A stretch of DNA of 64,000 nucleotides from Acidobacteriota bacterium (GTDB lineage: Bacteria; Acidobacteriota; Vicinamibacteria; Vicinamibacterales; UBA2999), in the NCBI GenBank assembly GCA_947482665.1, contig CANKJK010000005.1, positions 66,674 through 130,673 on the forward strand, written 5' to 3'. The notes below the pieces were generated by a model. It did no database searches. It was not told where the DNA came from and was given only the letters and a program-made list of their open reading frames with translations. Below are positions 18,950-41,143 of the stretch, piece after piece. Numbering within the stretch: the stretch's first letter is position 1; every line of letters starts with the position of its first letter. The position numbers were made by a program, and so were the translations under genes.

Positions 18950-19411
18950 TTACGGGCGAGGGGCCGCGGATGCCTCCGCGGACTGCCGGAAGCGCTCAAG
19001 GAGCCGGCTCGAGGAATCCAGCACCGTGTCCAGATACACGATGCCGATACCGTGCTCCGCGCAGATACGAACCTGCTCCGGCGGCAGGCGACCATCCCAG
19101 TCCTTGCCCTTGACGTAGTACTTCGGACGCAGGTGCCGGAGGATGGTTTCCGTATCGTGGGCGTTGATATGCGTGTAGGTGATGTAGCGAATCGCGTCGA
19201 TGACGATGGCCCGCTGGTCCTCCGGGAGGAGCGGCGTGTGCTTCGTGCGCACATAGCGATCCGATGCGACATTGCAGAGCAGCGGCACGTCGACCGCCGC
19301 AGCAGCGGCCCGGAAGTACTCGATGTGGCCCTTGTGGAGCGGATCGAATGCACCGTCCACCATCGCGACGGCGCCGTGATAGCGCGTCAGGTCGTCGAAC
19401 GCGAGGATCAC
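18950..19411 (-). CDS. HxGH-type nucleotidyltransferase (TagD glycerol-3-P cytidylyltransferase / RfaE domain II superfamily)
   Basis: Track ORF 18950..19498 trimmed to GTG 19411 (GTGA overlap). VDGAFDPLHKGHIEYF carries the HxGH motif. IDAIRYITY and YVKGKDWDG match the TagD layout as I remember it. Confidence 0.75.
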   Translation of the reverse strand: MILAFDDLTRYHGAVAMVDGAFDPLHKGHIEYFRAAAAAVDVPLLCNVASDRYVRTKHTPLLPEDQRAIVIDAIRYITYTHINAHDTETILRHLRPKYYVKGKDWDGRLPPEQVRICAEHGIGIVYLDTVLDSSSRLLERFRQSAEASAAPRP

Positions 19412-20544: not shown

Positions 20545-20553
20545 TCCGCTCCT

Positions 20554-22185: not shown

Positions 22186-22212
22186 GAATGACTCCTCGGG
22201 AAGTGTTCCGTG

Positions 22213-23367: not shown

Positions 23368-24395
23368 GCCAGATGGTCTTCCGTCAGGAGTTCGTCCAGA
23401 TCGAGCGCCCGCAGCAGCCGGCGTCCCACGACGTCAGCCAGCCGCGATTCGGGGAGGCCCGTGCCGGGCTTCTTCAGCACCAAATCCCCGTCAGCCAGTG
23501 TATGCCCCTCCGGGAGCGCTCGGACGGCCACGAGGCTGCGCGTGAAGATGGCGCGCAGTGGCTCGGTCGTCACGGCCGCCTCGTCCTTATCGAGCGGCGA
23601 AGCCTGCATCCGCTCGATGAACCGGATGCCCTCCACCAACTGCCGCAGTTCTGCCGTGGTCACCGACGCCGGCACATCCGGGCCAAACATCTCGCGGCTG
23701 AGGGTGACGTGGAGCTCCAGAATGTCGATGCCCATCGTGACCGCGGCGAGCCCTGGATAGATCGTGGCGGAGTGGTCGGAGAGGCCGACCCACCCGTCGT
23801 ACCGCTGCCGGAACAGGGGAATCATGTTGAGCCCGACCAGTTCGGGCGGACAGGGATAGGCCGTCGTGCACTGGAGGACGCCGGCCTGACTGCCGGCGAC
23901 CTGGATACGGGCCATGGCCGCATCCGTCTCCGCCAGCGGGCTCATGCCGCTCGAGATCACGACGGGACGCCCCGTGGCGATCATCCGGTCCAGGAGCGCC
24001 CGATGACCGATTTCCCCTGAGGCGACCTTCCAGAAGCGCTGGCCAATCCGGTCGAGCACCTCGACGGCCTGATTGGAAAATGGCGAGCAGATAAAGGCGA
24101 CACCGCGCTCGGTGCAGTGCTCCGCGAGGCCCTGCCACTGCTCCGGCGTGAATGCCATCCTGCGCCAGTAGTCATAGCGCGTCTGGTCCTGCCGGCTGAA
24201 CTTCACGCGGAAGGGCTCGGAGGGGGTGCTCTCCGCTTCCGCGATGTGCATCTGGAACTTCACGGCGTCGGCGCCGGCCGCGGCGATTGCGTCGACGAAG
24301 GCGTGGGCCTGACCGAGGCTGCCGTCGTGCGTGAGCGCAACTTCACCCATCACGTAGCAGCGTCCGGTTCCAATTTCGGGCTCTGTCTGACTCAT
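23364..24395 (-). CDS. neuB: N-acylneuraminate (nonulosonate) synthase
   Basis: Track ORF 23364..24488 trimmed to ATG 24395 (ATGA overlap with the FamA A1 stop). Motifs CYVMGEVALTHDGSLGQAHAFVDAIAAAGADAVKFQ, VLQCTTAYPCPPE and LSDHS, plus a C-terminal SAF-like domain. Confidence 0.88.
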   Translation of the reverse strand: MSQTEPEIGTGRCYVMGEVALTHDGSLGQAHAFVDAIAAAGADAVKFQMHIAEAESTPSEPFRVKFSRQDQTRYDYWRRMAFTPEQWQGLAEHCTERGVAFICSPFSNQAVEVLDRIGQRFWKVASGEIGHRALLDRMIATGRPVVISSGMSPLAETDAAMARIQVAGSQAGVLQCTTAYPCPPELVGLNMIPLFRQRYDGWVGLSDHSATIYPGLAAVTMGIDILELHVTLSREMFGPDVPASVTTAELRQLVEGIRFIERMQASPLDKDEAAVTTEPLRAIFTRSLVAVRALPEGHTLADGDLVLKKPGTGLPESRLADVVGRRLLRALDLDELLTEDHLA

Positions 24396-26062
24396 GGCAG
24401 GCTCGGTCCTCTCGACGATAATCCCGGCGCCACGCGGAGCACCGCGGTCTTCGCGGCGGCGACGACTCTGGCCCATCGCCGTCGCCATAACGTGGTCCGC
24501 TGTTCCCGGTACTTCTCCGCGTACCGGCGGGCGCGGTCCGCCTGAACCGCCGCCTTGTCTACCGCCTCGCGCGCCTGACGGGGGTCACCCAACCAGCGCC
24601 GTCCCCACGCGGTGTCCATCATCAGGGCCAGCCCGACCGCCTGGAGACGGCCGCGTGCTGTCACCACCTCTGGCAGACCCGGCCGTGCGGCCGCGACGGC
24701 TTCAACCGCCTCCACGAAACGCGGCGTCGCCGGCGCCGTCAGCCCATGAGGCCGCACGAACGCCTCGACAAACGGCGTATTCCGCCGGCTCGTCGTCCCG
24801 GTGAGCCCCGCGAGCAGTTGCCACGCGTGCTCGTCGAGTGAGCGGCTCGTGTGGAGGAAACCCTCACCCACCCGCAGCAGGTATTGGAAGTGGAGTGTGC
24901 CCTCCTGGTTCTCCCGAAACTCGGGCAGCAGGACGGTGTACACGGGCCGGTCGACGATGGCCGACTCGATGAGCGCGCTGGTGTTCAGCCCCACGACGGC
25001 CGCCGCGTGATACATCGAGTCGAAGTAGTCGGCGCGGGTCCCGGGGTCGAGCGGCGCCGAGCCAAACACGTGGACGCCGGGGAACTCCGCGGCGAGATCG
25101 ATGCCGTCCCACTCGGCGAGGCGCTGCGGATGCGGGCGGACGACAATCGGCACCTCGCGCAACCGGGCATCGGCATGTTCCCGAAGCGAGCGGATCCACT
25201 GGCGAACGAAGCCCGGTTCGGGCGGACTGCCCTTGAAGAGCGACGAGCACACATAGAGCACGAACGCGCGGTCGTCGGGCAATCCCACCCGTCCGCAGAA
25301 GACGTCTCTGGCGAGCGCGGGCTGCCGGTCGAACCACTGGTCGAAGCACTGCGCACCAGTCACGACGACAGCCTCGGGCGCCAGACCGTGCAGCTCGACG
25401 GCTTCGCGCCGTTGGGTCTCGTTCCACACGAGCACGCGGTCGGGACGCACACGGATGAGCGCCTTGCTCGTCAGATGATCCCAACTCCACACGGCGAGTG
25501 CGGTGCGGATCCCGAGCGCCCGGGCCGCGCGGAGATAGTCCAGCTGCGGCGACCCGAGCTCAATCAGCGGTGTCAGCACCACCAGGTCGGGAGCCTGCGA
25601 CGCGATGAACTCCCGGACGCGCGGGGACGGTTCGATCGCGCGTTCCACTTCCGCAACCCTGGTCACGGCCTCCCCGACGCCCCAGCGGTCGCGGGCCCAC
25701 GCCGCCAGCGCCGGTGTGCGCTCCGCCGCGCGCTGCCGGATCTTCGAGGCGTCGGCGTAGCGAGCGTCCTCATAGCGAAGGAAGTCGAGGCTGAACCTGA
25801 GCCCTTCCGAGAGGCGCCTCCGCCGCGTGGCCGGCACCTGCGGAGTCAGGCCAAAGGTCACGCCTGGAGTCTCGGCGGCCAGGCGCTCCACGAACTCACG
25901 GTTGTCGTCGCGATCGACGGCCAGGTGCACGCGGTGCCCACGCGCGGCCAATAGCCGGATGGCACCGTCGAAATTGCGGAAGTACGTGTAGTGCCGCGCG
26001 AGAAAGAGAATCGTCATGGTCCCGGACGGGCATCCCGCCTCGCGGCGTTGCTCATCGCTCAT
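24392..26062 (-). CDS. FamA paralog A1: putative GT-B-fold transferase, family unassigned
   Basis: Track ORF 24392..26374 trimmed to ATG 26062 (ATGA overlap with the B1 stop). By homology an alternative start is ATG 26017 (MTILFLARHYTYFRNFDG). Family blocks: LDFLRY, TPLIELGSPQLDYLRAARALGIRTALAVWSWDHLTSK, VVTGAQCFDQWF, FVLYVCSS, IVVRPHP, DYFDSMYHAAAVVGLNTSALIESAIVDRPV, ENQEGTLHFQYLL and FVEAFVRPHGL. Confidence 0.7.
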   Translation of the reverse strand: MSDEQRREAGCPSGTMTILFLARHYTYFRNFDGAIRLLAARGHRVHLAVDRDDNREFVERLAAETPGVTFGLTPQVPATRRRRLSEGLRFSLDFLRYEDARYADASKIRQRAAERTPALAAWARDRWGVGEAVTRVAEVERAIEPSPRVREFIASQAPDLVVLTPLIELGSPQLDYLRAARALGIRTALAVWSWDHLTSKALIRVRPDRVLVWNETQRREAVELHGLAPEAVVVTGAQCFDQWFDRQPALARDVFCGRVGLPDDRAFVLYVCSSLFKGSPPEPGFVRQWIRSLREHADARLREVPIVVRPHPQRLAEWDGIDLAAEFPGVHVFGSAPLDPGTRADYFDSMYHAAAVVGLNTSALIESAIVDRPVYTVLLPEFRENQEGTLHFQYLLRVGEGFLHTSRSLDEHAWQLLAGLTGTTSRRNTPFVEAFVRPHGLTAPATPRFVEAVEAVAAARPGLPEVVTARGRLQAVGLALMMDTAWGRRWLGDPRQAREAVDKAAVQADRARRYAEKYREQRTTLWRRRWARVVAAAKTAVLRVAPGLSSRGPSLP

Positions 26063-27318
26063 TGATTCCCAATCAACTCGCTCTTCGCGCCTTGCGATCC
26101 GGGCGCCCGGCCAGGACCATCTGTCAACGCCGTGAGCGGGTCGAGCGCGCGAAGGTCCAATGGGGAGAAGCGTCCCGCGCCGGGCAACCGGTGGCAGGCG
26201 CGCAGCGCCACTGAGAGGTGTGCGTGCAGGAACTCCGGGTCGGCGAGCACGGCGGAGGTATTGACGCCGAGCATGGGCGCCAGCCACGTGAGGCTTCCAC
26301 AGGTGCCGACGTAGGCCGAGGCGTGGGCGATGATGTCGGTCTGCGCCGCAAGATTCATGGAGGGCGTCAGCCACTCACGCGCACTGACGATGCGCGGATC
26401 ACCGGCGAAGGCGTAGTCGGCGTGGTCGTCAATGGCCAGGCCGGTATCAAGCAGCACCACGGTGCTCCGCTCCGCCAGCTCGCGGACCATACGCTGCAGC
26501 GCCTGCCGGATGGCCGGCGTGTCGGGCATCGAGCGCGCCGCGTAGAACTTCACCGCCACGTAGGACTCGGGCAGACTCGTCCGCGCGATGACGCCTGGCG
26601 GACGGTGGAGGCGGAAGCGCGTGTGGCTGTCGAGGAACCCGCTCGCCCGATGGCCGGACCAAAAGAGCTTGAAGAGCCGGAACATCAACGACGGATGCAG
26701 GACCCGCGCGCCCTCGAGCCCCTGCGCCTTCACGGCGGCCGCGACCAGGTCCGCTTCGAGCGGCGAATGCGTGAGCTGCTTGAGATCGCCACGCTCGGCG
26801 TTGCGGCGCGCGAACTCCTCCGGGGTGATGTGATCCCACATCTCCACGTAGCGTGACGCGATGCCGTCGTACCAGGCCGAAACACCACCGCGGGACACCG
26901 CGGTGACCCGGGCCGGATCGAGCTGATACGCCGCACTGACCCAGCGGAGGAACGGAATCCAGTAGAGGACTTCGTAGCCGACCTCGGCCAGCCAGGGTCC
27001 GATGATGATCGGCGCGTCGCCGTCAGTGAGGGCGGCAAGCTCACGCTCCACCTGCCACTCGGTCTGGTTCCAGCCGTCCTGTTCCTTCAGTTCAGCCAGA
27101 CGGTGGCGCCGCTCACGCAGAGGACGCCGGACCGCACGGTAAACGTCCTTACCGGCGTTCACCGCCCGGTTGGACACCCCCTCGCGCACGTGCCCCACGG
27201 CGTGCATGGCGTCCTTCATGCCCTCGAACACGACCTTCCACGTATGCCGGACGCGGTTCTGCGCACGGCGCGCCTGCTTCAGCGTCAGATTGCGGGCGGC
27301 GGTGAGGCGCTGGGGCAT
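26059..27318 (-). CDS. FamB paralog B1: basic helical head plus putative GT-B-like core, family unassigned
   Basis: 419 aa. An Arg/Lys-rich head of about 100 aa, then PIIIGPWLAEVGYEVLYWIPFLRW, SRGG, VLHPSLMFRLF, YVAVKFY, PDTP, DDHADY, NLAAQ and AYVGTCGSLTWLAPMLG. Confidence 0.7.
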   Translation of the reverse strand: MPQRLTAARNLTLKQARRAQNRVRHTWKVVFEGMKDAMHAVGHVREGVSNRAVNAGKDVYRAVRRPLRERRHRLAELKEQDGWNQTEWQVERELAALTDGDAPIIIGPWLAEVGYEVLYWIPFLRWVSAAYQLDPARVTAVSRGGVSAWYDGIASRYVEMWDHITPEEFARRNAERGDLKQLTHSPLEADLVAAAVKAQGLEGARVLHPSLMFRLFKLFWSGHRASGFLDSHTRFRLHRPPGVIARTSLPESYVAVKFYAARSMPDTPAIRQALQRMVRELAERSTVVLLDTGLAIDDHADYAFAGDPRIVSAREWLTPSMNLAAQTDIIAHASAYVGTCGSLTWLAPMLGVNTSAVLADPEFLHAHLSVALRACHRLPGAGRFSPLDLRALDPLTALTDGPGRAPGSQGAKSELIGNQ

Positions 27319-27327
27319 CGTCCGGTG

Positions 27328-29979
27328 TCAGTCGCGGGGCACGGCGGGCACGGCCGGCGGCATCGGAAACGCAGCGGCCAGCGCGCGCCTGTGTCGGATG
27401 TCCACTTCCGAAAAGCCTCCGCCGCCGAGGCTCGCGAACACGCGCTTGGCGACCTCGAGGTGATCCCAGCGGAAGCCGCCGGGCTCGGAGTAGAACGTGA
27501 TCGTGTCGGTGCCGGCCAGGGGCGCGAGATAGGAGAAGCCGCCATAGCTGCCGACATAGGCCTCGGCGCCTCGGATCACGGCCGTCTGCACGGCAAGGTT
27601 CGTGGCAGGCACCATCAGGTGATCGATGGTGTGGATGCGGCCGCGCATCTCGCGCGGGAAGTCGTCATGATCGTCGTAGCGGACGCCGGATCCGAGCAGC
27701 ACCACGTCGCCACCCTGCGCGAGGCCCGCTAGGCACTGTTCCACGAACGCACGGTTGTCGGGCGAGTCCGGTAACGCGACGTTGCCGTAGAACTTCGCCA
27801 CCACGTACCGGTCCGGCAACTGGCGGCGAATGGCCTGCTCGGCCTCCGAGGCCCCGATGCGCGCGTACTGCGTGAACAGCTCCACGAGCGTGATGGGCTG
27901 CTCCTGCCGCCAGAAGAGCTGGAAGAGGCCGTACATCAGCGACGGGTGCAGCACCTCATAGCTCGCGAGCTCGCGTGACGCGGCCACACGCTCGGCGATC
28001 TCCTTGTCGAAGCCGGCAAGCTGCACGTGCTTCAGCACGCCCTTCTGCTCGGTGATTCGCGCCTCGTTGCGCGTCCGGAACTCCTCGGGCGTGAAGTAGC
28101 TGAAGACGTCGTCGTAATTCGGCGTGATGTCCTGATACCAGAGCCCGGTACCACCGCGCGACACCACATGCAGGCGTGCCGGGTCGAGGTGCGCATACCG
28201 CTTCGCCCATCGGACGAAGGGCACCCAGTACAACAGCTCGAAGCCGGCCTCGGAGAGCCACGGGCCCACGATGATGGGCTTGCCTGATTCTGCCAGCCGG
28301 ACCACCGCCTCGCGCACCGCCTGCGCCTCGGGCGTCTGGCTGCCAGCCAGCACCTTCTGCTCGCGAAGCTTTCCAACTCTGGGCGCGAGCGCGGACGCGC
28401 CGCCGATGGCTTCGGCCCTCGCGTGCTCGGCGGCCTTGCGCTTGTCGGCTCCGCGCACGGTGACCCGGCCCGGGCCGGCGGCCTCCCGGTCGCGGCGACC
28501 CACAGCGGCCAGCACCCTCGGCAGGATCCGGCCCGCAATCCCGGCAAAGGGGACGCGCGCGGGCGCCGGGCTCGGACGGGAGCCAAGGCGCTCGATGGCC
28601 TCGACGAATTTCGGCGCGGCTGCGACCTCGAGCCCGAAGGGCCGGATGAAGTAGCGCGCGAAGTCGCGGCTCTTCGGATCGGCGTCCACATGCGCCGAGA
28701 GCGGAGCCGCGAGCTGCGCGACGTGCTCCTCGAAACTACGCGCCACGTGCAGGAGACCACCGCCCGCCGAGAGACCGGCTTCGCGCCCGGCACGGTCGCG
28801 CGTCCGCTCGCCCAGCAAATACCGGAAATGGATGGTCCCCTCCTGGTTCTCCCGCGAGTACTTCGGCAGGATCACCGTGTGGACCGGCCGGCCGACGACC
28901 GCCGACTCAAGGAACGCGCTCGTGTTGAGCCCGACGACCACCGCGGCATGGTGCATCGAGTCGAAGTAGTCGGCGCGCGACGCCTCGTCGAGCGGATGGC
29001 TCCCCCAGAAGGCCACATCCGTGTAACCCGACAGATCGAAGCCGGCCCACTCGTCGAGACGGCTCGGGTGCGGACGGATCAGGATCCCCGCCGTGGCGAC
29101 GGCCGGTTCCGGCGCTGACCGGATGGCCCGGATCCACTTCTCGACGAACACCGTCTCGTCGACCGTGTCCCGGAACAGCGACGAGCACACGTAGAGGATG
29201 TAGGGCCGATCAGGCGGGAGTCCAAGTTGTGCGCAGAGCTGCGCGCGTGAACGGCGGGGCGTCCAGCCGAACCAGTGATCGTAGGTGTGCGCGCCGGTCA
29301 CCTCGACGGATGCAGACTCGAGCCCGTGCAGACGGACGGCTTCGTCCTTCTGCAGCTCGTTCCACACCAGGATGAGCCCGGGGTTGCCGCGAACCGGCGC
29401 CTTGCTCGACAGGTGATCCCAGCTCGTCACGGGCAGCGCTGTCCGGAGGCCCAGCGCACCGGCCGCCTGGAGGTAATCCATCTGCGGCGACCCGAGCTCT
29501 ATCAGCGGCGTCACCAGCACGACATCCGGCTGCTCCGCGCGCAGCCACTCGAGGATGGGCTGACTCACGGGCACCGCCGCTTCCATCCACCGGAGGAACG
29601 CGGAGAGCAGCGCACGGCCAGGCTTGCGTCGGATGAGCGGCGCATTCAGCCAGCGAAGGATGGCGCCGGGCGCCCGGGCTTCCGCCCGGGCGCGCAGGTG
29701 ACGCGCCTGGTTGTAGAGCGGGTCGCGGAAGCGGACGGCGTCGATGCCGAGCCGGAGGTGCCGGACACGATCCGCCTGCTCCGTCTTGGCCCGCACTGGG
29801 GCCGTCGTGACGGAAACACCCGGACAGTCGGCCATCAGCGCGTCGAGCAGCCGCTGGCTGCTCGGGTCCTCGCGCTCGACCGACAGCCGGACGATGTGAC
29901 CTCGGGCCGCAAGTGCCCGGATGACGCCGTCGAAGTTGCGGAGGTAGCCGCTGTGGCGCGCGATAAACAGGACCTTCAC
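27328..29979 (-). CDS. Natural FamA-FamB fusion (A2-B2)
   Basis: Track ORF 27328..30171 trimmed to GTG 29979 (GTGA overlap), giving 883 aa. It starts VKVLFIARHSGYLRNFDG and carries all FamA blocks (VTSWDHLSSK, ILIRPHP, ENQEGTIHFRYLL). A basic linker of about 100 aa follows. The last 316 aa (from about nt 28278) form a complete FamB core: PIIVGPWLSEAGFELLYWVPFVRW, VLHPSLMYGLF and AYVGSYGGFSYLAPLAG. Confidence 0.75.
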   Translation of the reverse strand: MKVLFIARHSGYLRNFDGVIRALAARGHIVRLSVEREDPSSQRLLDALMADCPGVSVTTAPVRAKTEQADRVRHLRLGIDAVRFRDPLYNQARHLRARAEARAPGAILRWLNAPLIRRKPGRALLSAFLRWMEAAVPVSQPILEWLRAEQPDVVLVTPLIELGSPQMDYLQAAGALGLRTALPVTSWDHLSSKAPVRGNPGLILVWNELQKDEAVRLHGLESASVEVTGAHTYDHWFGWTPRRSRAQLCAQLGLPPDRPYILYVCSSLFRDTVDETVFVEKWIRAIRSAPEPAVATAGILIRPHPSRLDEWAGFDLSGYTDVAFWGSHPLDEASRADYFDSMHHAAVVVGLNTSAFLESAVVGRPVHTVILPKYSRENQEGTIHFRYLLGERTRDRAGREAGLSAGGGLLHVARSFEEHVAQLAAPLSAHVDADPKSRDFARYFIRPFGLEVAAAPKFVEAIERLGSRPSPAPARVPFAGIAGRILPRVLAAVGRRDREAAGPGRVTVRGADKRKAAEHARAEAIGGASALAPRVGKLREQKVLAGSQTPEAQAVREAVVRLAESGKPIIVGPWLSEAGFELLYWVPFVRWAKRYAHLDPARLHVVSRGGTGLWYQDITPNYDDVFSYFTPEEFRTRNEARITEQKGVLKHVQLAGFDKEIAERVAASRELASYEVLHPSLMYGLFQLFWRQEQPITLVELFTQYARIGASEAEQAIRRQLPDRYVVAKFYGNVALPDSPDNRAFVEQCLAGLAQGGDVVLLGSGVRYDDHDDFPREMRGRIHTIDHLMVPATNLAVQTAVIRGAEAYVGSYGGFSYLAPLAGTDTITFYSEPGGFRWDHLEVAKRVFASLGGGGFSEVDIRHRRALAAAFPMPPAVPAVPRD

Positions 29980-32350: not shown

Positions 32351-35013
32351 CGCGGGCCGGTCCCCGCCGGCGCCGTCTCGCGGTCGCCACCGCCGAGCAT
32401 GCGCCGCGTGACCGGCAGTTCGCGCAGGTCGAGCGGCGTGAAGGTTCCAACCTGCAGCGCCGAGAAGACGCGCCGGGCGACATCGAGGTGGTCGAACCGA
32501 AAGCCCGTCGGGTGCGAGTAGAACGCCACGGTGGGCACCCCAAGTAGCGGCGCGAGATACGAGAAGCCGCCGTAGGTGCCGACAAACGCCTCGGCGCCCG
32601 CAATCACAGCGGACTGCACTTCGAGGTTGTCTTCAGGACGCATCAGATCCGTGACGCGGTGCACGCGCGCGCGCACCTGCGAGGGCAGGTCGGCGTGGTC
32701 GTCAAAGCGGATACCCGTGTCGAGCAGCACGACGTCCGAGGTCTCGGTGAGCGCGGCAAGCGTCTCCGCGATGAACTGCCGGTTGCCCGCCGTATCCGGG
32801 AGCGCGCCGTTCGCGTAGAACTTCGCCGCGACGTACCGCTCCGGCAGGGCGGCGCGGACGTCCGGACGGTCCGGACGCTGCAGCGGGCCGTGCGCCGTGA
32901 ACGCATCAATGAGCGTCACCGGGGCGAGCTGCCGCCAGTACGCGTTGAAGAGCCGGTACATCGTCGAAGGATGGATCCGGTGCGTCTTCCCGAGCTTCAG
33001 GTCCGAGGCGACACGCTGCTCGATTTCGCGATCCCAGGCGGTCATCTCGAGATGCTTCAGCCGGCCCCCATAGGACGCCTGCCGCGCCTCGTTCATCGCG
33101 CGGAACTCGTCGGGTGAGCAGTAGCCGAAGAGGTCGACGTAGCGGCTGGTGATGTGCCGGTACCACGACGCCGTGCCGCCGCGCGAGATCACGACCAGGC
33201 GTTCCGGGTCGATGTTGCCGTAGGCACGGGCCCACGCGAGGAACGGAATCCAGTAGAGCAGCTCGAAGCCCGTCTCCGACACCCACGGCCCCAGAATGAT
33301 GGGCTCCTGAATGCGGCCGATGGCCGTCACAAGTGCTCGAACCTCCTGCACCTCAGGCACGTTCGGGAACTTCTCGACTTTCGCCGGATCGGCGCCCTTC
33401 CCCACCTTCGGCAGCATGGTGCCCTGATGGGGCGCGGGCGGCGCGGCCCCGAGCCACGCCAGCAGGCGCCGGCGCACCGGCGCCCACAGCCGCTCGACGA
33501 TCCGGCGCTTCATGCGCTGCACGAACGAGCGGGCCATCTTCCGCCCCAGCTCCGTCCATACCTGCGCGCCGGCCACCAGGAACCATGGCAGCAGGAGGAT
33601 GCGCGCGAGGAACGCCGCCGGGGCCGACACGCGCACCGGGGCCGGCGCCGGTCGCCCTCCAAGCGCCTCGATCGCGTCGGCGAAGCGAGGAGTACCCGCC
33701 TCCTCGCGCCCGAACGGACGGACGAACCCTTCGATGAACCGGCGGCTCTTGTCGGACGTCTCGCCGGCCAGCGTGCGCGCGAGCTGGCCGCGGTGCTCGT
33801 CGAAGCTGCGGGCCACATGCAACAGGCCGCCGTTCACTTCCATGAGGTACCGGAAGTGAAGCGTGCCCTCCTGGTTCCGGTCCGAGAACTCGGGCAGCAG
33901 TACCGTGAACACCGGCCTGTCCACGCAGCCCGCCTCGATGAAGGCACTCGTGTTCAGCCCCACCACGGCGGCGGCGTAGTGCATGGAGTCGAAGTAGTCG
34001 TTCTTGGACTCGGCGTCGATCGGGTGCGCGCCGTAGAGCACAACGTCCGTGAAGCCGGTGAGCTCCGTCGACGCCCATTCCTCCATCCGCTGCGGATGCG
34101 GCCGCACGAGAATCGACGCGTCGCGGAGCGCCGGGTCGGTGCTCGTGCGCACTTCCTGGATCCACCGCTCGACGAATCGGGCCTCGTTGCCCGTGCCCTT
34201 GAAGAGCGACGAGCAGACATACAGGATGAACGGCTTGTCGCGCGGGAGTCCCACGCGTTCGAGGAACGCCTCACGCGGGCGCGACGGCGCACGGTCGAAC
34301 CATTGGTCGAAGCACTGCGCGCCGGTGACGACCACCCGCTCCGGCGGCACGCCATGGAGCCTCACGGCCTCGTCGCGCTGGACGGGGTTCCAGACCGTGA
34401 CGAGCTCAGGCAGCTCGCGGAGGCGTGACTTGCTGGACAGGTGGTCCCAACTACCAACCGCGAGCACCGAACGCAGACCGAGCGCCTTGGCGGCAATCAG
34501 GTGGTCGAGCTGCGGCGTCCCGAGTTCGATGAGCGGCGTGATCAGCACCGCATCCGGCCGCTGGTCCCGCAGGAAACGCTCAAGGGGCTCGTTCGCGGGA
34601 ATGGCGCGCTCGAGCACCCGCAGCCAGCGTTCGAGCCGGCGCGCACCGTCGACGCCACCCAGCCCCGGCACGCGCTGCAGACGGAGCAGGATGTGGGGTG
34701 CGCGCTCACGGGCCCTGGCGCGCAAGTGCGGCGTGTCGTCGTAGAGAGGATCCACGAAGCGCAGGTAGTCAAGCGCCAGGCGCAGCCGGCGCGCCATCTC
34801 CACCCACGCACCGGACTCGCGGCCCTTCGTCCAGCCAAACGTGAGATGCCCGCCGGATTCAGCGGCCAGCCGGCGGACGAGCTGTTCGCCGCCGAGCAGC
34901 TCCCAGCGATCCGCCGACACGTGCACATCGTGCCCGCGCCGGACGAGCTCCATCACCGCGGACTCGAAGTTCCGCAGATAGGCGTAGTGCCGGACAAGGA
35001 AGAGGATACGCAT
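32347..35013 (-). CDS. Natural FamA-FamB fusion (A3-B5)
   Basis: Track ORF 32347..35136 trimmed to ATG 35013 (TGATG overlap), giving 888 aa. It starts MRILFLVRHYAYLRNFES and carries the FamA blocks (VGSWDHLSSK, ILVRPHP, RNQEGTLHFRYLM). After a linker, the last 318 aa (from about nt 33303) form a FamB core: PIILGPWVSETGFELLYWIPFLAW, RIHPSTMYRLF and AFVGTYGGFSYLAPLLG. Confidence 0.75.
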   Translation of the reverse strand: MRILFLVRHYAYLRNFESAVMELVRRGHDVHVSADRWELLGGEQLVRRLAAESGGHLTFGWTKGRESGAWVEMARRLRLALDYLRFVDPLYDDTPHLRARARERAPHILLRLQRVPGLGGVDGARRLERWLRVLERAIPANEPLERFLRDQRPDAVLITPLIELGTPQLDHLIAAKALGLRSVLAVGSWDHLSSKSRLRELPELVTVWNPVQRDEAVRLHGVPPERVVVTGAQCFDQWFDRAPSRPREAFLERVGLPRDKPFILYVCSSLFKGTGNEARFVERWIQEVRTSTDPALRDASILVRPHPQRMEEWASTELTGFTDVVLYGAHPIDAESKNDYFDSMHYAAAVVGLNTSAFIEAGCVDRPVFTVLLPEFSDRNQEGTLHFRYLMEVNGGLLHVARSFDEHRGQLARTLAGETSDKSRRFIEGFVRPFGREEAGTPRFADAIEALGGRPAPAPVRVSAPAAFLARILLLPWFLVAGAQVWTELGRKMARSFVQRMKRRIVERLWAPVRRRLLAWLGAAPPAPHQGTMLPKVGKGADPAKVEKFPNVPEVQEVRALVTAIGRIQEPIILGPWVSETGFELLYWIPFLAWARAYGNIDPERLVVISRGGTASWYRHITSRYVDLFGYCSPDEFRAMNEARQASYGGRLKHLEMTAWDREIEQRVASDLKLGKTHRIHPSTMYRLFNAYWRQLAPVTLIDAFTAHGPLQRPDRPDVRAALPERYVAAKFYANGALPDTAGNRQFIAETLAALTETSDVVLLDTGIRFDDHADLPSQVRARVHRVTDLMRPEDNLEVQSAVIAGAEAFVGTYGGFSYLAPLLGVPTVAFYSHPTGFRFDHLDVARRVFSALQVGTFTPLDLRELPVTRRMLGGGDRETAPAGTGPR

Positions 35014-36608
35014 CAGGCGGCGGTCTTCCGGGGCTTGCCGTCCTTCTTGCTCGGCCCCTTGGATTGGCGGCGGCGCTCCTTCTCCGCCGAGGCTTCGTCG
35101 GCGAGCCAGATCCGGCCGGCCGGCGTGCCAGCCCACCGTAGCGCCAGTCGCGCACCGAGCCGCGCCATGACACCGGGACCAGCGGGCGCGGCCGCGGGAC
35201 CGGACGACGGGAGCGTGGTGATCGCGGAGACGAACCGCGGCGTCGCGGCATCCGTCAGGCCATGCGGACGCACGAACGCTTCGACGAACCGCCGGCTCCG
35301 CGCGGCATCCGCCTCGCCACGGAGGGCGCCCGCGATCTGGATCGCGTGCGCCTCGAGCGAACGCGAGAGGTGCAGCAGGCCCGCGCCCGATCCATCGACG
35401 TCCGTCGACGTCGAGCCGTCCGGGGCCACCGCGGCGCCCAGCAGGTAGTGGAAGTGAATCGTGCCTTCCTGGTTGTCGTAGTACTCGGGCAGGAGCACCG
35501 TGTAGACGGGCCGTTCAGCGATGGCGCCCTCGATGAACGCGCTCGTGTTGAGCCCCACCACCGCGGCGCTGTAGTGCAGTGAGTCGAAGTAGTCGGCCCG
35601 CGGCTCCGGCGCGATGGGATTCCCGCCCCAGACGGTCACGCCCGCCTCCTGAGACAGATCCACGCTCTCCCACTCCTGGAGACGCGATGGATGCGGACGC
35701 ACGAGAATCCCGCACGACGCCAGCTCGGGATGCCCGCTCTCGCGAAGAGCGCGGATCCACCGCCGCACGAATTCCGCCTCGACGGGACTCCCCTTGAAGA
35801 GCGACGAACACACCCAGAGAAGGAACGGCCGGTCATCGGGCAGGCCCACGCGTTGGCAGAACTCGGCGCGCGGACGGGAGGGCGTCCGGTCGAACCAGCG
35901 GTCGAAGCATTGCGCGCCGGTGACCGTCAGGCGCGATGCCGGCACGCCGTGCAGGTCGATCGCCTCGCGCTCCTGTGTCGGGTTCCAGACGATCACGCGG
36001 TCCGGCACGGTCCGGATGATGGCCTTGCTCGAGAGGTGGTCCCAGCTCCATACGCAGAGCGCGGACGGAATGCGGAGCCGCCGCGCCGCATAGAGGAAGT
36101 CGAGCTGCGGCGAGGCCACGACTCCGATGAGCGGCGTCAGCAGCACCGCATCCGGCTGTTCGGCCCGGAGCAGGGCCTCGACCTCCGGCGCGGGGCCGAT
36201 CGCCTGTTCGACGGCGGAGAGCATCCGGCCGAGCCAGCGGCGCAGCGGCGCCCGACTGAATGGGCCGCGCTCGGTCAGCCGCACGACGCCGGACGGCGTC
36301 TTCCGGCGAGCCCGACCCTTCAGGCGCGGCGTCTTCGCGTAGGCCGGCTCCAGATACCGCAAGTAGTCGATGCCGAAGCGGAGGCGGACGGCCAGCGCGT
36401 AGCCGCGGCCGGCCGGGGCCGGCGACACGCTCGTCCGGATGCGACCGGGATAGGCGGCACTGAGGCGGTCGATGATCTGCGTGCCGCCGAACTCCTCGTG
36501 CTGTTCGACCACGATGTGCAGGTCGTGCCCGGCGCGGGCCAGCTCCTCGAGCGCGGAATCGAAGTTCCGCAGGTACGTCAGGTGCCGGGCCACGAAGAGG
36601 ATCTTCAT
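35013..36608 (-). CDS. FamA paralog A4
   Basis: 531 aa with ATGA overlap with the upstream stop. Motifs MKILFVARHLTYLRNFDS, VWSWDHLSSK, ILVRPHP, DYFDSLHYSAAVVGLNTSAFIEGAI, DNQEGTIHFHYLL and FVEAFVRPHGL. Confidence 0.7.
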   Translation of the reverse strand: MKILFVARHLTYLRNFDSALEELARAGHDLHIVVEQHEEFGGTQIIDRLSAAYPGRIRTSVSPAPAGRGYALAVRLRFGIDYLRYLEPAYAKTPRLKGRARRKTPSGVVRLTERGPFSRAPLRRWLGRMLSAVEQAIGPAPEVEALLRAEQPDAVLLTPLIGVVASPQLDFLYAARRLRIPSALCVWSWDHLSSKAIIRTVPDRVIVWNPTQEREAIDLHGVPASRLTVTGAQCFDRWFDRTPSRPRAEFCQRVGLPDDRPFLLWVCSSLFKGSPVEAEFVRRWIRALRESGHPELASCGILVRPHPSRLQEWESVDLSQEAGVTVWGGNPIAPEPRADYFDSLHYSAAVVGLNTSAFIEGAIAERPVYTVLLPEYYDNQEGTIHFHYLLGAAVAPDGSTSTDVDGSGAGLLHLSRSLEAHAIQIAGALRGEADAARSRRFVEAFVRPHGLTDAATPRFVSAITTLPSSGPAAAPAGPGVMARLGARLALRWAGTPAGRIWLADEASAEKERRRQSKGPSKKDGKPRKTAA

Positions 36609-39325
36609 GCGGGCCCCGCCCCTCGACGCGTGCGGCCCGTGAGATGGCGATAGTGCAGGCTGTCGCTGCTCTGGGTCCGGTCGCCCTTGCCCAGCTTCGA
36701 CGCCCGCGGCGCCTTCTTCATCGCCGACGTGTAATCCGTGTCGAGCAGCGTCACGTCTTGGACGACGTAGTCACGCCCGAGGATCGCGCTCACTGACGAT
36801 AGCTCGTCATTGTGCGCCGAGTGCTCCCGGTTGAGGCTGTAGACGCGCGGGCAGCCGGCCTTCGCGGCTAGGTCCAGATAGGCGGCCACTTGGTCGGCCC
36901 TCATCTCCTGGAACGACGCGATGTTCACGAGGAGCGACGGCGCGAAACCGGGGAGTTCGTGGGTCCGCGTGTGAGGCACGAAGACGACGTCGTACTCGCG
37001 CCAGCGGGCCTTCTCGGTCTCGGGCATCGCCGGATCCCAGATGAGCGTCTTCGCCGATGGCCGCACCGTGCGCAGGTAGGTCGCCGAGAAGAGGAACAGC
37101 TCCGGGAAGTCGGTGATGACGTAGGTGCACGGCGTCACGAGCGACGTGAACTGGTACGCGAAGCCGCCCCAGCCGGCGCCGATCTCCCAGACCACGGGCC
37201 GCGACAGGGCGTCGCGCGTGGCGGCGGCCTCCGCCCGGACCTCGTCGAGCATGCCGGTCCGGTGCAGCCCGGTGAGCACCTCCAGGTATTTCAGCGTGTC
37301 GAGATTGTGCAGAGTGCTGTCGATCTCGAAACCGAAGCCTCCGAGCGCCGGATGCTCCGGGACGACGAGACTCCCGCCACCCAGCTCCAGCAAGGCGCGC
37401 AGGCGCGCCTCGAAGGAGACGCGCTTCTCGCCATGGCTCTCTCGGTAGTCGTAGGGCCGGAGCCCGGTGATGTGGAAGGCGTGATGACGCAGCTTGGCGA
37501 TGACGAGCGGCGTCGCCTCGATCATGTAATCGATGTTGCCCAGCTCTTCGGTCCAGTAGGCGCTTGGCGACGACGTCCCGGAGAGGAGGCCCCGCTCGCG
37601 TGCCAGAATCGCGGCCACGCGACTCCGCACGTCGGCGAAGATCGCGACCGGATCCGAGGCGGCGGCGCCCGTCACGATCGCGGGGTGGATGCGCACGGGT
37701 GGGTGCACGACTGGTGCCTCGATCGTCGCGGGCGTCTTTCTCACCGTCTCTGGCTTCTCCACCGACGCGGCCACCGGCGTCGCCTTCGGAGCCTTCGTGG
37801 GCTTCGGCGGTTTCGGCGTCCGCTCATCCTTCGGCGGGCGCGCCTTCCCCTTGGGCGTTCCCTTCGGCTTCTTGCGTTCGGGCGCCCGGTTCACGAGCGC
37901 TGCCACGGGCCGGAGCGCCGTCCGGACCACGACATCGAGCAGGCCGTCACGATCCGCCACGGGCGCCGGCCCCGACGCGAACCGCTCGATCGTGTCGGCG
38001 AGAATCGGCGTGCACGGTGTCTCGATGCCATGCGGGCGGATGAACGACGCGACGAAGCGCCGCGTCTCGGCCGTCGCCGCCTCGGGGTTGCCCAGCACGC
38101 CCGCCAGTTGCCGCAGGTGCTCCTCGAACGTCGCGGCCACGCGGAGGAACCCGCCGTTCTCCGGCAGCAGATGGCGGAAGTGCAACGTGCCTTCCTGCGT
38201 GCCGGCGAAGTCGCCGGTCAGCGAGAAGACCGGCCGGCCCACGATGGCGGACTCGATCATCGCGCTGGTATTGACGCCGACGACGGCTGCGGCGTGGAAC
38301 ATCGAGTCAAAAAAGCCGGCCCGGTTCGCTTCGTCGACGGCGTTGTACGGCCCGCGCGGCCACACGGAGACGGCTCCGAGGTCGCTCAGGTCAGCGTGCT
38401 CCCAGGCGTGCCAGTTGTACGGGTGCGGACGCACGAGCACCGGGATGTCGCGCACCAGGGGGGCGGCGGAACGGCGCAACGCCTCGATCCACCGGCGCAC
38501 GAACGGCAGCTCGATCTCGGAGCGGGCGATGAAGACCGACGATGCCGTGTAGAGCAGATACGGCCGAGCGTCCGGGAGACCGGCAGCCGCGGTGAAGTCC
38601 TCGCGCGTCGTGCTGGCGGTCCGCTCGAACCAGCGGTCGAAGAGCTGCGCGCCGGTCACGGCCACCTTCGAGGCGGGCACCCCGTGATACCGCACCGCCT
38701 CGGCCTTCTGGGCTTCGTTCCAGACGATCACGAGGTCCGGCTGCACGCGCAGCAGCCCCTTGTTGGTCAGGTTGTCCCAGCTGGCGATCGCCACCGCGAC
38801 GCGAATGCCCAGGCGCCGCGCCGCGCGCACGACATCCACCTGCTCGGAGGCTGCGTCGATGAGCGGCGACACCACGACAACATCGGGGCGGTGGGTGCGC
38901 AGGAACTCCAGGACGCGGCCGCTCACCGGCACGCCGCGCTCGGCTTCGCCCAGCACGCGCACGGCGGCGCCCAGCGTGCCCGGGCGCAGGGACCGGATCC
39001 GGTCGAGCCCCTGCAGTGGGTGCGGCAGCACCTTCCGCCGCATGCGGTCCCGGAGCGCGGGTGCATCCGCGTAGTCAGGATGGAGGTAGCGCAGGAAGTC
39101 GACCGTGCCTCGCAGGCTCGTCGCGAGCCGCGCCCAGCGGTCGCCCCGGACCGGCACCAGCCCGAGCGAGTGGACGCCGTCGACGTCGTCGACGCGTGCC
39201 TGCTTCTGCTCCTTCACGTGACTCACCGCGACGGAGACGTCATGACCGCGACTCGCCAGCAGGCGCAGCACCGAATCGTAGAACCGGAGGTACTCCGGGG
39301 ACGCGAGAACGAAGAGCACCTTCAC
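36605..39325 (-). CDS. FamA paralog A5 fused via Pro/Lys-rich linker to a SAM-methyltransferase-like domain
   Basis: Track ORF 36605..39919 trimmed to GTG 39325 (TAGTG overlap), giving 906 aa. Residues 1 to about 480 are FamA (VKVLFVLASPEYLRFYDS, IASWDNLTNK, VLVRPHP, GTQEGTLHFRHLL). Residues 481-548 (nt 37682..37885) are the linker RKKPKGTPKGKARPPKDERTPKPPKPTKAPKATP. Residues about 550-870 contain VVWEIGAGWGGFAYQF (GxGxG SAM motif I) and VNIASFQEM. Confidence 0.7.
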   Translation of the reverse strand: MKVLFVLASPEYLRFYDSVLRLLASRGHDVSVAVSHVKEQKQARVDDVDGVHSLGLVPVRGDRWARLATSLRGTVDFLRYLHPDYADAPALRDRMRRKVLPHPLQGLDRIRSLRPGTLGAAVRVLGEAERGVPVSGRVLEFLRTHRPDVVVVSPLIDAASEQVDVVRAARRLGIRVAVAIASWDNLTNKGLLRVQPDLVIVWNEAQKAEAVRYHGVPASKVAVTGAQLFDRWFERTASTTREDFTAAAGLPDARPYLLYTASSVFIARSEIELPFVRRWIEALRRSAAPLVRDIPVLVRPHPYNWHAWEHADLSDLGAVSVWPRGPYNAVDEANRAGFFDSMFHAAAVVGVNTSAMIESAIVGRPVFSLTGDFAGTQEGTLHFRHLLPENGGFLRVAATFEEHLRQLAGVLGNPEAATAETRRFVASFIRPHGIETPCTPILADTIERFASGPAPVADRDGLLDVVVRTALRPVAALVNRAPERKKPKGTPKGKARPPKDERTPKPPKPTKAPKATPVAASVEKPETVRKTPATIEAPVVHPPVRIHPAIVTGAAASDPVAIFADVRSRVAAILARERGLLSGTSSPSAYWTEELGNIDYMIEATPLVIAKLRHHAFHITGLRPYDYRESHGEKRVSFEARLRALLELGGGSLVVPEHPALGGFGFEIDSTLHNLDTLKYLEVLTGLHRTGMLDEVRAEAAATRDALSRPVVWEIGAGWGGFAYQFTSLVTPCTYVITDFPELFLFSATYLRTVRPSAKTLIWDPAMPETEKARWREYDVVFVPHTRTHELPGFAPSLLVNIASFQEMRADQVAAYLDLAAKAGCPRVYSLNREHSAHNDELSSVSAILGRDYVVQDVTLLDTDYTSAMKKAPRASKLGKGDRTQSSDSLHYRHLTGRTRRGAGPA

Positions 39326-40851
39326 TAGCCGCGCTCCCGTTCGTCGGCGGCGGGCCCGCCGGCAGAGGCCTTCTTCCGTGCCTTCTGCAGGGCGGCGGCA
39401 CGGTCGACGGCGGCCGCGACCGGCGCGGCCGCCCAGGTGATCAGGCGATCCGTCATGGTCCGGGGCCGCGGGTGCGGCTTCACATCGACCAGCGACTCGA
39501 TCGCCCGCACGAAGGGTTCGGCTGCAGGCTGCGTCAGGCCGTGAGGCCGCACGAACGCCTCGATGAAGGCCCGACTCCGCGCCGCAAAGACCTCCGGTGC
39601 CGCCAGGATCTCGCCAAGCTGCGCGACGTGCGTTGACAGATCCGAGGCCAGATGCAGCAGGCCGCCGTTGACGCTCTTCAAGTGCTGGAAGTGCAGGGTG
39701 CCTTCCTGCGTGCCGGCGAAGTCCGCGGTCTGAATCGCGCAGACGGGGCGACCGACGATGCCCGACTCGATCTGCGCGCTCGTGTTCACGCCGACGACGG
39801 CCACGGCGTGAAACATCGAGTCGAAGTAGACGGCTCTCGCATCGGTGTCCACCGGGTTGGCGCCGGCGCGCGGCCAGATGGCCACGGCCTCGACGTCTCT
39901 GAGATCGACGTCCCGCCACTGCTCCGCGTTCTGCGGGTGCGGGCGGATCAGGACGCCGGCCGTCCGGACGCGCACGTCAGAGGAGGCGCGAAGCGCCGCA
40001 AGCCAGGTCCGGATGAACGGCACCTCGTGAGGCGTGATGAACGGCGACGAGCAGAGGTAGAGCACGAACGGCCGGCCCTCGGGCAAGCCGACCATCGCGC
40101 AGAACGCCTCGCGCGTCGTCGAGGGCTGTTGCGTGAACCAGTGGTCGTAGGCCTGGGCGCCGGTCACCATCACGCGGTCCGGGGGCACGCCGTGGATCTC
40201 AGCGGCTTCGCGGCGCTGGGCCTCATTCCACACCGTCAGTCGGTCGGGAATCTCATGAATCACGCCCTTCGTCGTCAGGTGGTCCCAACTGCCGACGCAG
40301 TGGCAGACGGGAATGCCGCGGTCCCTCGCCGCGCGCACGTAGTCGACCTGCACGGAGCCGAAATAGAGCAACGGCGTCACCAGCAGCACGTCGGGCTTGT
40401 GCTCATCCAGGATCTGGAGCGGCCCGCGCCCGTAGGGCAGCGCGCGCTCGACCCTTCGGACGAGGGCGCCCAGGAGTGCCATGCCCGGAACCGACCCGAT
40501 GACGGGCCAGCGGGCCACGCGCGAGGCGATGGGCGGCGCCTGCGTGGACGCGCGGACGCGGAGGCTCCGTGCCTGGTCGTACCGCGGGCCGAGATAACGC
40601 CAGTAGTCGAGGCACTGGCGGAGTCGCACGGCCAGCTGATGGAACGGATCGCTCTTCCGCGTGGGCGCGTAGCCGTAGGTGAATGCCTCGGGATGGGTGG
40701 CCAAGAGGTTGTCGATGGTCTTCGTGCCGCCGAGCGTGTCGCGCCGGTCGGCCAGCAGGTGAATGCGATGGCCGGAAGCCGCGAGCCGCCGCAGCGCCGG
40801 CTCGAAGTTCCGCAGGAACCCGAAATGAGAGACGGAAAAGAGAATCTTCAC
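39325..40851 (-). CDS. FamA paralog A6 (first gene after the intergenic promoter region)
   Basis: Track ORF 39325..40878 begins at a GTG with no SD. I prefer GTG 40851, which gives a VKILFSVSHFGFLRNFEP start homologous to the other paralogs and has GGGAG 12 nt upstream. Blocks VGSWDHLTTK, VLIRPHP, GTQEGTLHFQHLK and FIEAFVRPHGL. Confidence 0.7.
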   Translation of the reverse strand: MKILFSVSHFGFLRNFEPALRRLAASGHRIHLLADRRDTLGGTKTIDNLLATHPEAFTYGYAPTRKSDPFHQLAVRLRQCLDYWRYLGPRYDQARSLRVRASTQAPPIASRVARWPVIGSVPGMALLGALVRRVERALPYGRGPLQILDEHKPDVLLVTPLLYFGSVQVDYVRAARDRGIPVCHCVGSWDHLTTKGVIHEIPDRLTVWNEAQRREAAEIHGVPPDRVMVTGAQAYDHWFTQQPSTTREAFCAMVGLPEGRPFVLYLCSSPFITPHEVPFIRTWLAALRASSDVRVRTAGVLIRPHPQNAEQWRDVDLRDVEAVAIWPRAGANPVDTDARAVYFDSMFHAVAVVGVNTSAQIESGIVGRPVCAIQTADFAGTQEGTLHFQHLKSVNGGLLHLASDLSTHVAQLGEILAAPEVFAARSRAFIEAFVRPHGLTQPAAEPFVRAIESLVDVKPHPRPRTMTDRLITWAAAPVAAAVDRAAALQKARKKASAGGPAADERERG

Positions 40852-41114: not shown

Positions 41115-41143
41115 ATTTTAGCCGGATCTGCTCGATCTATCAA
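41115..41143 (-). promoter_or_regulatory. Putative sigma70-type promoter (TTGATA-17 nt-TAAAAT) on the coding strand
   Basis: The reverse complement of 41138..41143 is TTGATA and that of 41115..41120 is TAAAAT, with exactly 17 nt between them. The pair sits in the only obvious AT-rich island of the 426-nt gap, about 265 nt upstream of the A6 start. Confidence 0.5.

Follow-up and report, generated by a model that had tools for sequence, protein, structure and literature searches.

An array of two predicted GT-B families beside putative nonulosonic-acid and glycan-export genes in Vicinamibacterales

The stretch of DNA analysed here, termed the window, comprises 64,000 nucleotides (nt) of contig CANKJK010000005.1 (forward-strand positions 66,674 to 130,673) from an uncultured soil/water Acidobacteriota bacterium of the order Vicinamibacterales. 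At positions 24392-40851 on its minus strand, within a locus of approximately 60 kb, lies an array of nine tightly coupled genes which encode six domains of one family, FamA, and five of another, FamB. A further FamA (A7) and a further FamB (B6) are located close by, giving 13 FamA and FamB domains in the window (7 A, 6 B). The G+C content of the window was 64-71% and the minus strand held almost all genes. Genes were called by translating long minus-strand open reading frames (ORFs) and locating the conserved N-termini. An earlier sequence-only reading had described this gene order, the six FamA and five FamB domains and the outlying A7 and B6, and ORF translation with all-vs-all BLASTP recovered the same arrangement. 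In the direction of transcription, the nine genes are followed here by the two outlying copies and a promoter-like site:

A6, 39325-40851, minus strand: stand-alone FamA of 508 amino acids (aa), by BLASTP 42-46% identical to the other FamA copies
A5-MT, 36605-39325, minus strand: FamA (residues ~1-490), then a linker rich in Pro and Lys, then a putative sugar O-methyltransferase at the C-terminus
A4, 35013-36608, minus strand: stand-alone FamA, 531 aa, the FamA copy modelled
A3-B5, 32347-35013, minus strand: FamA-FamB fusion, 888 aa, both domains found by BLASTP
B4, 31334-32350, minus strand: stand-alone FamB, 338 aa, the FamB copy modelled
B3, 29976-31328, minus strand: FamB with an N-terminal basic/helical extension, 50.6% identical to B1, start uncertain
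A2-B2, 27328-29979, minus strand: second FamA-FamB fusion, 883 aa
B1, 26059-27318, minus strand: FamB, 419 aa
A1, 24392-26017, minus strand: FamA, 541 aa
B6, 41278-42555, minus strand: FamB, whose start overlaps the Wzm stop (GTGA)
A7, 46506-48365, minus strand: FamA among TIGR04372 genes, overlapping at its start with the stop codon of the FamC gene upstream
Sigma-70-like promoter match TTGATA-17-TAAAAT, 41115-41143, minus strand: upstream of A6, where B6 and A6 are 426 nt apart

The junctions within the array measured, in transcription order, -1, -4, -1, -4, +5, -4, +9 and +41 nt, the first being the 1-nt overlap of the A5-MT start with the A6 stop, and the term coupled is therefore correct for all nine genes. 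An ATGA overlap joins the A1 stop to the start of a neighbouring NeuB-like gene, and the coupled unit therefore extends past 24392. The promoter-like site agreed with the consensus in 10 of 12 positions within a region of ~68% G+C (1 found, 0.0 expected in shuffled sequence); as a consensus match it may mark the start of the transcript that carries the array. The start of B3 (region 31100-31328) is uncertain, since the ATG at 31328 gives 450 aa while the ortholog in L001, a locus of another Vicinamibacterales genome, has 373 aa and a start overlapping the B4 stop. The linker of A5-MT, at ~37600-37830 (residues ~500-575) between the FamA and methyltransferase domains, was of low complexity and Pro/Lys-rich (KPKGTPKGKARPPKDERTPKPPKPTKAPK). 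An Rfam scan of the window gave no match.

Similarity among the paralogs was far above chance within both families. In all-vs-all BLASTP, FamA pairs were 37.5-51% identical over ~450-520 aa (E 1e-96 to 1e-153) and FamB pairs 34.5-51% identical over ~290-350 aa (E 1e-53 to 1e-113). The two fusions, A2-B2 and A3-B5, aligned end to end with 47.7% identity over 881 aa, and the fused module was therefore duplicated as a unit. We infer that the array grew out of a shorter form when an [A-B][B] module was duplicated, which would account for the pairs A3-B5/A2-B2, B3/B1 and A4/A1. No DNA-level repeats were found in the array region, and the copies are therefore old.

Alignments of FamA and FamB were built from every window paralog and ~28 database homologs each. 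The motif blocks listed in the sequence-only reading reappeared as invariant columns, which in FamA were TPL, SWD.L..K, VTGA..D.WF, RPHP, D..DS, G.NTSA..E, Q.GT.HF and F...F.RP.G, and in FamB GPW..E.G.E..YW.PF..W, SRGG...WY, HP..M, FY, D.H, NL..Q and G..G....L.P. No FamA or FamB copy in the window had lost an invariant residue of these alignments. Besides a core of ~470 aa, FamA has a helical insertion (residues 68-150) and a strongly basic C-terminal tail. Integral membrane proteins were ruled out, as hydrophobic 19-mers occurred only in the A3-B5 linker (one) and in predicted Rossmann strands (two).

For structure prediction, AlphaFold2 models of A4 and B4 were made from the family alignments and compared with the PDB by Foldseek, as the sequence-only reading had proposed. 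Both models were confident: A4 reached a predicted local distance difference test score (pLDDT) of 88.3 and a predicted template-modelling (TM) score (pTM) of 0.88, with strands and helices alternating in residues 1-240 and 260-430, and B4 reached a pLDDT of 89.4 and a pTM of 0.88. A4 had 252 PDB matches at E <=1e-3, and all 50 listed were GT-B enzymes. The best were the 2-epimerases NeuC, WecB and MnaA (1e-9 to 1e-7, target-normalised TM ~0.65), followed among others by TagF (3l7j/3l7l/3l7i, ~1e-7), WaaG, MshA and GT1 enzymes. All 25 B4 matches at E <=1e-3 were likewise GT-B enzymes (GT9, CalG and 2-epimerases), the best being the GT9 enzymes WaaF (1psw, 4e-5), TibC and WaaC, to 1e-3, with 4rap at 6e-5. 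FamA and FamB are thus both predicted from the models to have a GT-B fold of two Rossmann-like domains.

On the modelled fold the FamA tetrad R304-P305-H306-P307, invariant in 34 sequences, follows strand 300-304 (second in the C-terminal Rossmann domain), and the invariant S-W-D-(H/N)-L..K follows a strand of the N-terminal domain. In GT-B enzymes that use cytidine monophosphate (CMP) or cytidine diphosphate (CDP) donors (the sialyltransferases GT38/52/80 and TagF), a conserved His-Pro of the C-domain contacts the donor phosphate. RPHP and SWD(H/N)L..K may be the phosphate-contacting His and the catalytic base of such enzymes. FamB has ~38 invariant residues, among them the acidic E49 and E53, which follow strand 1, the pair D237/H239 behind a strand of the C-domain, and G277..G280, a Gly-rich loop; in the model these are predicted to lie where GT-B enzymes bind substrates.

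With all paralogs and all alignment members scanned, the Pfam and NCBIfam cut-offs were reached by no FamA or FamB domain. Searching PDB sequences with a profile of either family returned matches at chance level only (E 0.04 or worse). The sequence-only reading had spoken of families it could not name. This held for the databases searched, but the families are not of an unknown kind, as both are predicted GT-B glycosyltransferases. More than 3,700 FamA and more than 1,200 FamB relatives were among the database candidates scored. In the best 120 matches per family a precomputed Pfam domain was present in none but one FamA (PF13439). All named homologs were called 'hypothetical protein', as had been anticipated, and came from Vicinamibacterales, Acidobacteria and a few other metagenome-assembled genomes (MAGs).

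The sole NCBIfam model that FamA matched consistently was NF046086, below threshold in 33 of 34 members (best E 6.3e-7). The seven FamA paralogs of the window scored 12.7-27.2 bits against a cut-off of 200, over ~70-130 residues within model positions ~41-189 of 365, which indicates remote homology short of membership. PF13439 (Glyco_transf_4 N-domain) was weakly matched by 22 of 34 FamA members (best E 1.3e-4), the best window paralog, A5-MT, scoring 20.7 bits where the threshold is 28.5. Against PF04464 (threshold 22.1 bits), A3-B5 alone among the window paralogs gave a signal (12.6 bits, E 0.065), as did a single one of the 34 members (E 0.022). PF02350 (Epimerase_2) was matched neither by the 34 members (E up to 1) nor by the window paralogs (E up to 0.1). 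The C-terminal part of A5-MT scored 70.3 bits (cut-off 44, E 1.9e-19) with TIGR04371 (methyltran_NanM), a partial match of residues 707-822 to model positions 148-263 of 273.

For FamB, PF01075 (GT9) was hit by 2 of 35 members, both below the membership cut-off (best E 0.14), and NCBIfam heptosyltransferase models gave single matches at E 0.05-0.06. An exhaustive hidden Markov model (HMM) search of 1.84 billion cluster representatives returned 1,684 FamB clusters (50% identity) at E <=1e-3, of which 1,467 had E 1e-10 or better; FamB is therefore sharply bounded and does not grade into GT9. A tblastn search of 72,556 plasmids found no match to either family, and neither was found in the literature on TIGR04372, on nonulosonic acid in Acidobacteria or on legionaminic-acid polymer transferases.

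The sequence-only reading omitted the context that gives the array its meaning, namely a NeuB/NeuC/NeuA operon, a Wzm/Wzt transporter and FamC, a third multi-paralog set. The neighbouring genes are:

NeuB-like synthase, 23364-24395, minus strand: PF03102, 205.8 bits; coupled to A1
NeuC, 22213-23367, minus strand: PF02350, 221.2 bits; TIGR03568, 364 bits (cut-off 236)
Methyltransferase, 21259-22185, minus strand: between NeuC and the CMP-synthetase
CMP-nonulosonate synthetase (NeuA), 20554-21258, minus strand: PF02348, 80.9 bits
Second nonulosonic-acid set, 3-8026, minus strand: NeuB2 (2900-4087), NeuA2 (3-719), LegB-like (7037-8026) and PseC/LegC-like (5889-7112)
Wzm permease, 42552-43445, minus strand: PF01061, 40.7 bits; B6 coupled to it via GTGA
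Wzt ATPase with C-terminal extension, 43432-44706, minus strand: PF00005, 76.9 bits; TagH/Wzt-type NCBIfam matches
FamC (TIGR04372 glycosyltransferases), four copies flanking A7, 45163-46458, 48362-49636, 49646-50902 and 50899-52353, minus strand: 100-146 bits (cut-off 45)
FamC, fifth copy, 60953-62128, minus strand: found by tblastn
Small cytidylyltransferase-like gene, 18950-19498: weak TagD match (TIGR01518, E 4.9e-6)
UDP-GlcNAc (uridine diphosphate N-acetylglucosamine) 3-dehydrogenase-like oxidoreductase, 13674-14696
Hexapeptide acetyltransferase, 12970-13806
Aminotransferase, 9912-11048
NDP (nucleoside diphosphate)-sugar dehydrogenase, 59177-60886
Sugar C-methyltransferase, 55184-56455

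By their profile matches NeuB, NeuC and the CMP-synthetase make up a predicted CMP-nonulosonate biosynthesis set that is coupled to the array. The nonulosonate made is not fixed by the NeuB score, which was 269 bits with TIGR03569, below the 400-bit cut-off. This first gene set spans 9912-24395 on the minus strand and contains, downstream of NeuA, a LegB/GalE-like dehydratase, a NeuD-type acetyltransferase and PseC/LegC-like aminotransferases. The presence of two sets suggests either two different nonulosonates or one that is extensively modified. The oxidoreductase, acetyltransferase, aminotransferase, dehydrogenase and C-methyltransferase suggest further donors of unusual kind, namely diacetamido (uronic) sugars and a C-methylated deoxysugar. 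The upstream region also holds a dehydratase and a GT2 enzyme, and the locus has three GT2 enzymes in total. Long minus-strand ORFs without a significant Pfam or NCBIfam match were present at 52434-55277, 15162-16706, 11507-13015, 8497-9915 and 4002-4955; one of the encoded proteins measures 947 aa, and another, of 514 aa, has several long hydrophobic stretches (possibly a membrane protein of polymerase-, ligase- or ArnT-like type).

Wzm and Wzt predict an export pathway dependent on an ATP-binding cassette (ABC) transporter for a glycan made at this locus. Residues 49-364 of Wzt aligned with residues 30-349 of the 404-aa PDB chain 8dku/7k2t ('ABC transporter', E 2e-64), which we take to be the full-length Wzt of Aquifex aeolicus with its carbohydrate-binding domain. 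The C-terminal extension of the window Wzt measures ~170 residues and had no Pfam match; the 8dku/7k2t alignment by itself makes it a candidate carbohydrate-binding domain. This alignment runs past the nucleotide-binding domain, which implies that a terminal glycan cap may be recognised.

The five FamC copies were 31-43% identical to the first copy. As putative glycosyltransferases in several paralogs at the same locus they resemble FamA and FamB, and a FamC segment aligned with a C-domain segment of FamB, although this hhalign alignment was not significant (E 0.14). FamB as a divergent member of TIGR04372 was dropped on that value. Comparison of FamA, FamB and FamC by hhalign revealed no significant relation (A-C, E 0.21), and FamA and FamB as halves of one family were likewise dropped.

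The MAG locus L001 has the window's genes in unchanged order between the ABC transporter and A1, both included. The window domains had positional orthologs of 60-89% identity in L001, L005 and L006, and most also in L007 and L041, whereas the second-best match of each was a paralog of only 40-53% identity. At the same position in L001, identities were 74% for A6, 82% for A1, 81% for B3 and 60% for B6; the B1 ortholog was 80% identical, and the A3-B5 ortholog 88-89% in L001/L006. Ratios of nonsynonymous to synonymous substitution (dN/dS) against L001 were 0.09-0.29 for all ten genes (A3-B5 0.09, B1 0.17, A6 0.21); these values are rough, since dS was ~0.9-1.2 and thus near saturation. The gene order of all copies was kept in at least four other genomes of the lineage. 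The duplications had been called ancient in the sequence-only reading, and the one-to-one positional orthologs under purifying selection, together with the lack of DNA-level repeats, bear this out. Recent amplification was ruled out, as DNA-level tandem repeats were lacking and the paralogs (35-52% identity) are less alike than the orthologs. Pseudogenes or dead copies, which that reading had named as evidence that would count against it, were not seen and were ruled out by the intact frames, the invariant residues kept in every copy and the dN/dS range. Positional orthologs more alike than paralogs, the low dN/dS and the retained invariant residues argue for non-redundant paralogs.

A census with one genome per GTDB species yielded 356 stretches with FamA relatives, and the best 69 loci, all from MAGs and mostly Vicinamibacterales or Acidobacteriota, were examined. 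Co-occurrence, which had been proposed as a check, was counted in 45 loci that measured 15 kb or more and represented one GTDB species each, all different. In this FamA-seeded sample at least two FamA domains were present in 44 loci (median 4, maximum 8) and at least one FamB in 43 (median 3, maximum 6). NeuB, NeuC or NeuA lay within ~10 kb in 40 of the 45, and 13 had two NeuC or NeuA copies. Between lineages, array size ranged from 1-8 FamA and 0-6 FamB per ~21 kb, with A:B ratios such as 7:0, 8:2 and 2:5. Shorter arrays (A, A-B, B, A) directly adjoined NeuB, and FamA-only arrays stood beside NeuC/NeuA, e.g. in L004 and L068. The best 149 FamB cluster representatives included 29 A-B fusions, one A-B-A and one B-A-B, and B-B forms exist. 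FamA/FamB arrays are thus the rule in Vicinamibacterales MAGs and not peculiar to the window.

FamA arrays with 50-64% identity to A4 were also observed on MAG contigs labelled 'Bifidobacteriaceae' (L030, L038, L041), 'Acidimicrobiia' (L004, L028) and 'Gammaproteobacteria' (L053). Identity to A4 was 64% in L004 and 61% in L041, and the latter retains the gene order of the window. The taxonomic labels of these six bins look doubtful.

NF046086 is the family of the Tannerella forsythia proteins Tanf_01245/TFUB4_00887 (BFO_1060 family), whose deletion removes a terminal pseudaminic- or legionaminic-acid derivative from the O-glycan; the study's authors describe them as GT-B enzymes resembling TagB and containing an HP motif (PMC5420450). 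Like FamA, the Tannerella enzymes are encoded beside CMP-nonulosonate genes with a methyltransferase nearby, and each has an HP motif (PMC5420450). FamA differs from them in being longer, in having 4-8 paralogs per locus and in its frequent fusion to FamB or a methyltransferase, and in Tannerella a single terminal residue is added by these enzymes to an O-glycan on protein, unlike what is proposed for FamA below.

TagF and TagB, which are CDP-glycerol glycerophosphotransferases, resemble FamA in the two-domain GT-B-like fold (Foldseek ~1e-7), and can be likened to it as peripheral-membrane enzymes of ABC-exported lipid-linked polymers that use a donor with a CMP leaving group and have a conserved His. 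FamA nevertheless remains below the PF04464 threshold and its locus shows no polyol-phosphate pathway. The GT9 heptosyltransferases WaaC, WaaF and TibC are likened to FamB as its best structural matches, by the Gly-rich C-domain loop and by acidic residues after N-domain strand 1, whereas FamB lacks sequence membership of GT9 (E 0.14, 2/35), reaches a TM-score of ~0.4 and is sharply bounded.

Among ABC-dependent O antigens and capsules, the comparators are the E. coli O9a enzymes WbdA/WbdD, Klebsiella O12 WbbB, KpsC/KpsS and the polylegionaminic-acid O antigen of Legionella pneumophila. The window locus would resemble such O-antigen systems in Wzm and an extended Wzt, in cytoplasmic multi-domain GT-B enzymes, in a possible capping fusion of a transferase and a methyltransferase and in nonulosonic/ulosonic donors. 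O-antigen systems of this type make do with few transferase domains, drawn from known CAZy families, in contrast to the 13 domains of two unclassified families, the 5 TIGR04372 proteins and the 3 GT2 enzymes of the window locus.

Taken together, we consider it probable that FamA and FamB are glycan-building GT-B transferases of this pathway. The array would be the glycosyltransferase core of a locus for a complex surface glycan that contains nonulosonic (sialic-acid-like) acid. This glycan would be built up on a lipid carrier, on the cytoplasmic side of the membrane, and then exported via the Wzm/Wzt ABC transporter. FamA and FamB would be soluble or peripheral-membrane proteins extending the lipid-linked glycan in the cytoplasm; the lack of predicted membrane spans and the basic FamA tails fit peripheral-membrane enzymes that act on a lipid-linked acceptor before ABC export. 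Each paralogous domain would most likely form one particular linkage, and that each paralog acts at a distinct step is a reasonable reading of orthology and conservation. Since A-to-B fusions are conserved, a FamB step may come directly after a FamA step or be coupled to it.

FamA would be the likelier transferase for CMP-nonulosonates of the legionaminic/pseudaminic type because of the NF046086 link, the RPHP motif (with SWD(H/N)L..K) and the FamA-only arrays beside NeuC/NeuA; for this specific donor assignment we see the chances as evenly balanced. FamB, being GT9-like, would probably transfer another sugar that the locus makes. A candidate role for the A5-methyltransferase fusion is to terminate or cap the chain. 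In methyl-capped O antigens the cap is read by an extended Wzt, and the Wzt of the window may do the same. The analysis shows the two families, the fold predicted for them, how well they are conserved and where their genes lie, whereas catalysis, donor identities, order of action and the capping role are what we infer.

Several points weigh against this interpretation. Function and donor specificity are predictions for every FamA and FamB member, and every match to a named family was far below cut-off (FamA 13-27 bits against 200) and covered ~70-130 residues. The top structural matches of FamA were 2-epimerases and not transferases, and its RPHP is a putative equivalent of the 'HP' motif of sialyltransferases and TagF. 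No sequence relative of FamB was found in any described family by Pfam, NCBIfam and PDB profile searches, and the TM-scores of B4 to GT9 structures were only ~0.4 (0.35-0.44 for all matches). An initiating polyprenyl-phosphate sugar-phosphate transferase was not identified in the window. The co-occurrence census was seeded with FamA and covered the most similar loci only, all of them MAGs. Finally, ABC-dependent polymers usually need few glycosyltransferases, and at least 13 transferase domains are left unexplained, and are not predicted, by the ABC-dependent model.

Other explanations were weighed. The paralogs might be alternative or redundant diversifiers, used for strain- or condition-specific decoration of the glycan and not as obligatory sequential steps. 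The variation of array size between lineages and the signs of segmental duplication (A3-B5/B3 versus A2-B2/B1) are what would be expected of such diversifiers. Every copy is nevertheless retained in the same order in at least four other genomes of the lineage under purifying selection, and all copies belong to one translationally coupled unit, which renders this explanation unlikely.

Slightly less credible is that FamA proteins are TagB/TagF-like phosphotransferases which would join CDP-activated polyols or sugar phosphates into a phosphodiester polymer resembling teichoic acid. TagF, which carries an HP motif as well, was among the structural matches of A4, the weak PF04464 matches point the same way, and the gene at 18950-19498 might be taken for TagD. 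However, that gene scored higher for RfaE domain II than for TagD, with both scores below cut-off, and the PF04464 signal was sporadic (1/34) compared with that of NF046086 (33/34). No genes for glycerol- or ribitol-phosphate supply were seen in the locus, and the tightest linkage of FamA is to NeuB/NeuC/NeuA.

It is also improbable that FamB lacks catalytic activity and is a GT-B-like partner that binds the acceptor for FamA or acts as its scaffold, leaving FamA as the sole enzyme. Such an arrangement exists for GtfB with GtfA in streptococcal serine-rich-repeat glycosylation, and it would suit the recurrent A-B fusions, the A:B ratio near 1:1 in the window (7:6) and the lack of sequence similarity of FamB to any catalytic family. 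The invariant FamB residues are, however, concentrated at GT-B active-site positions, A:B ratios differ widely between loci and B-B fusions occur. Finally, FamA as nucleotide-sugar 2-epimerase-like modifying enzymes, as the best A4 matches could suggest, is very improbable, as 2-epimerases share the generic GT-B fold, FamA lacks even a weak PF02350 signal while weak signals of glycosyltransferases recur consistently among its members, the locus already holds a true NeuC and we know of no precedent for an epimerase with seven paralogs of which some are joined to another GT-B domain.

The transferase interpretation can be carried further, to a proposal that we regard as tentative and on balance doubtful. 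FamA and FamB would be new glycosyltransferase families (candidate CAZy families) forming an assembly line of at least 13 GT-B domains, each adding one defined residue to a long, non-simply-repeating glycan of defined sequence rich in legionaminic/pseudaminic-type acids. If so, FamA would be the first family of 5,7-diamino nonulosonic acid transferases that build a chain and do not merely cap it, and the glycan would belong to one of the most abundant yet least cultured orders of soil bacteria.

To our knowledge, few transferases are known for the bacterial nonulosonic acids (pseudaminic, legionaminic and related), and polymers such as polylegionaminic acid have no assigned transferase at all. 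As a large and conserved family that lacks annotation and is physically and translationally coupled to CMP-nonulosonate synthesis, FamA offers concrete candidates for this missing activity. FamB is sharply bounded and has no sequence link to described families, with a confidently predicted fold, and either family would clearly merit a Pfam, NCBIfam or CAZy model of its own. The Vicinamibacterales are an order known mainly from metagenomes, and the arrays, which are typical of it, probably encode the synthesis of a major component of the envelope or exopolysaccharide in these widespread soil and freshwater bacteria.

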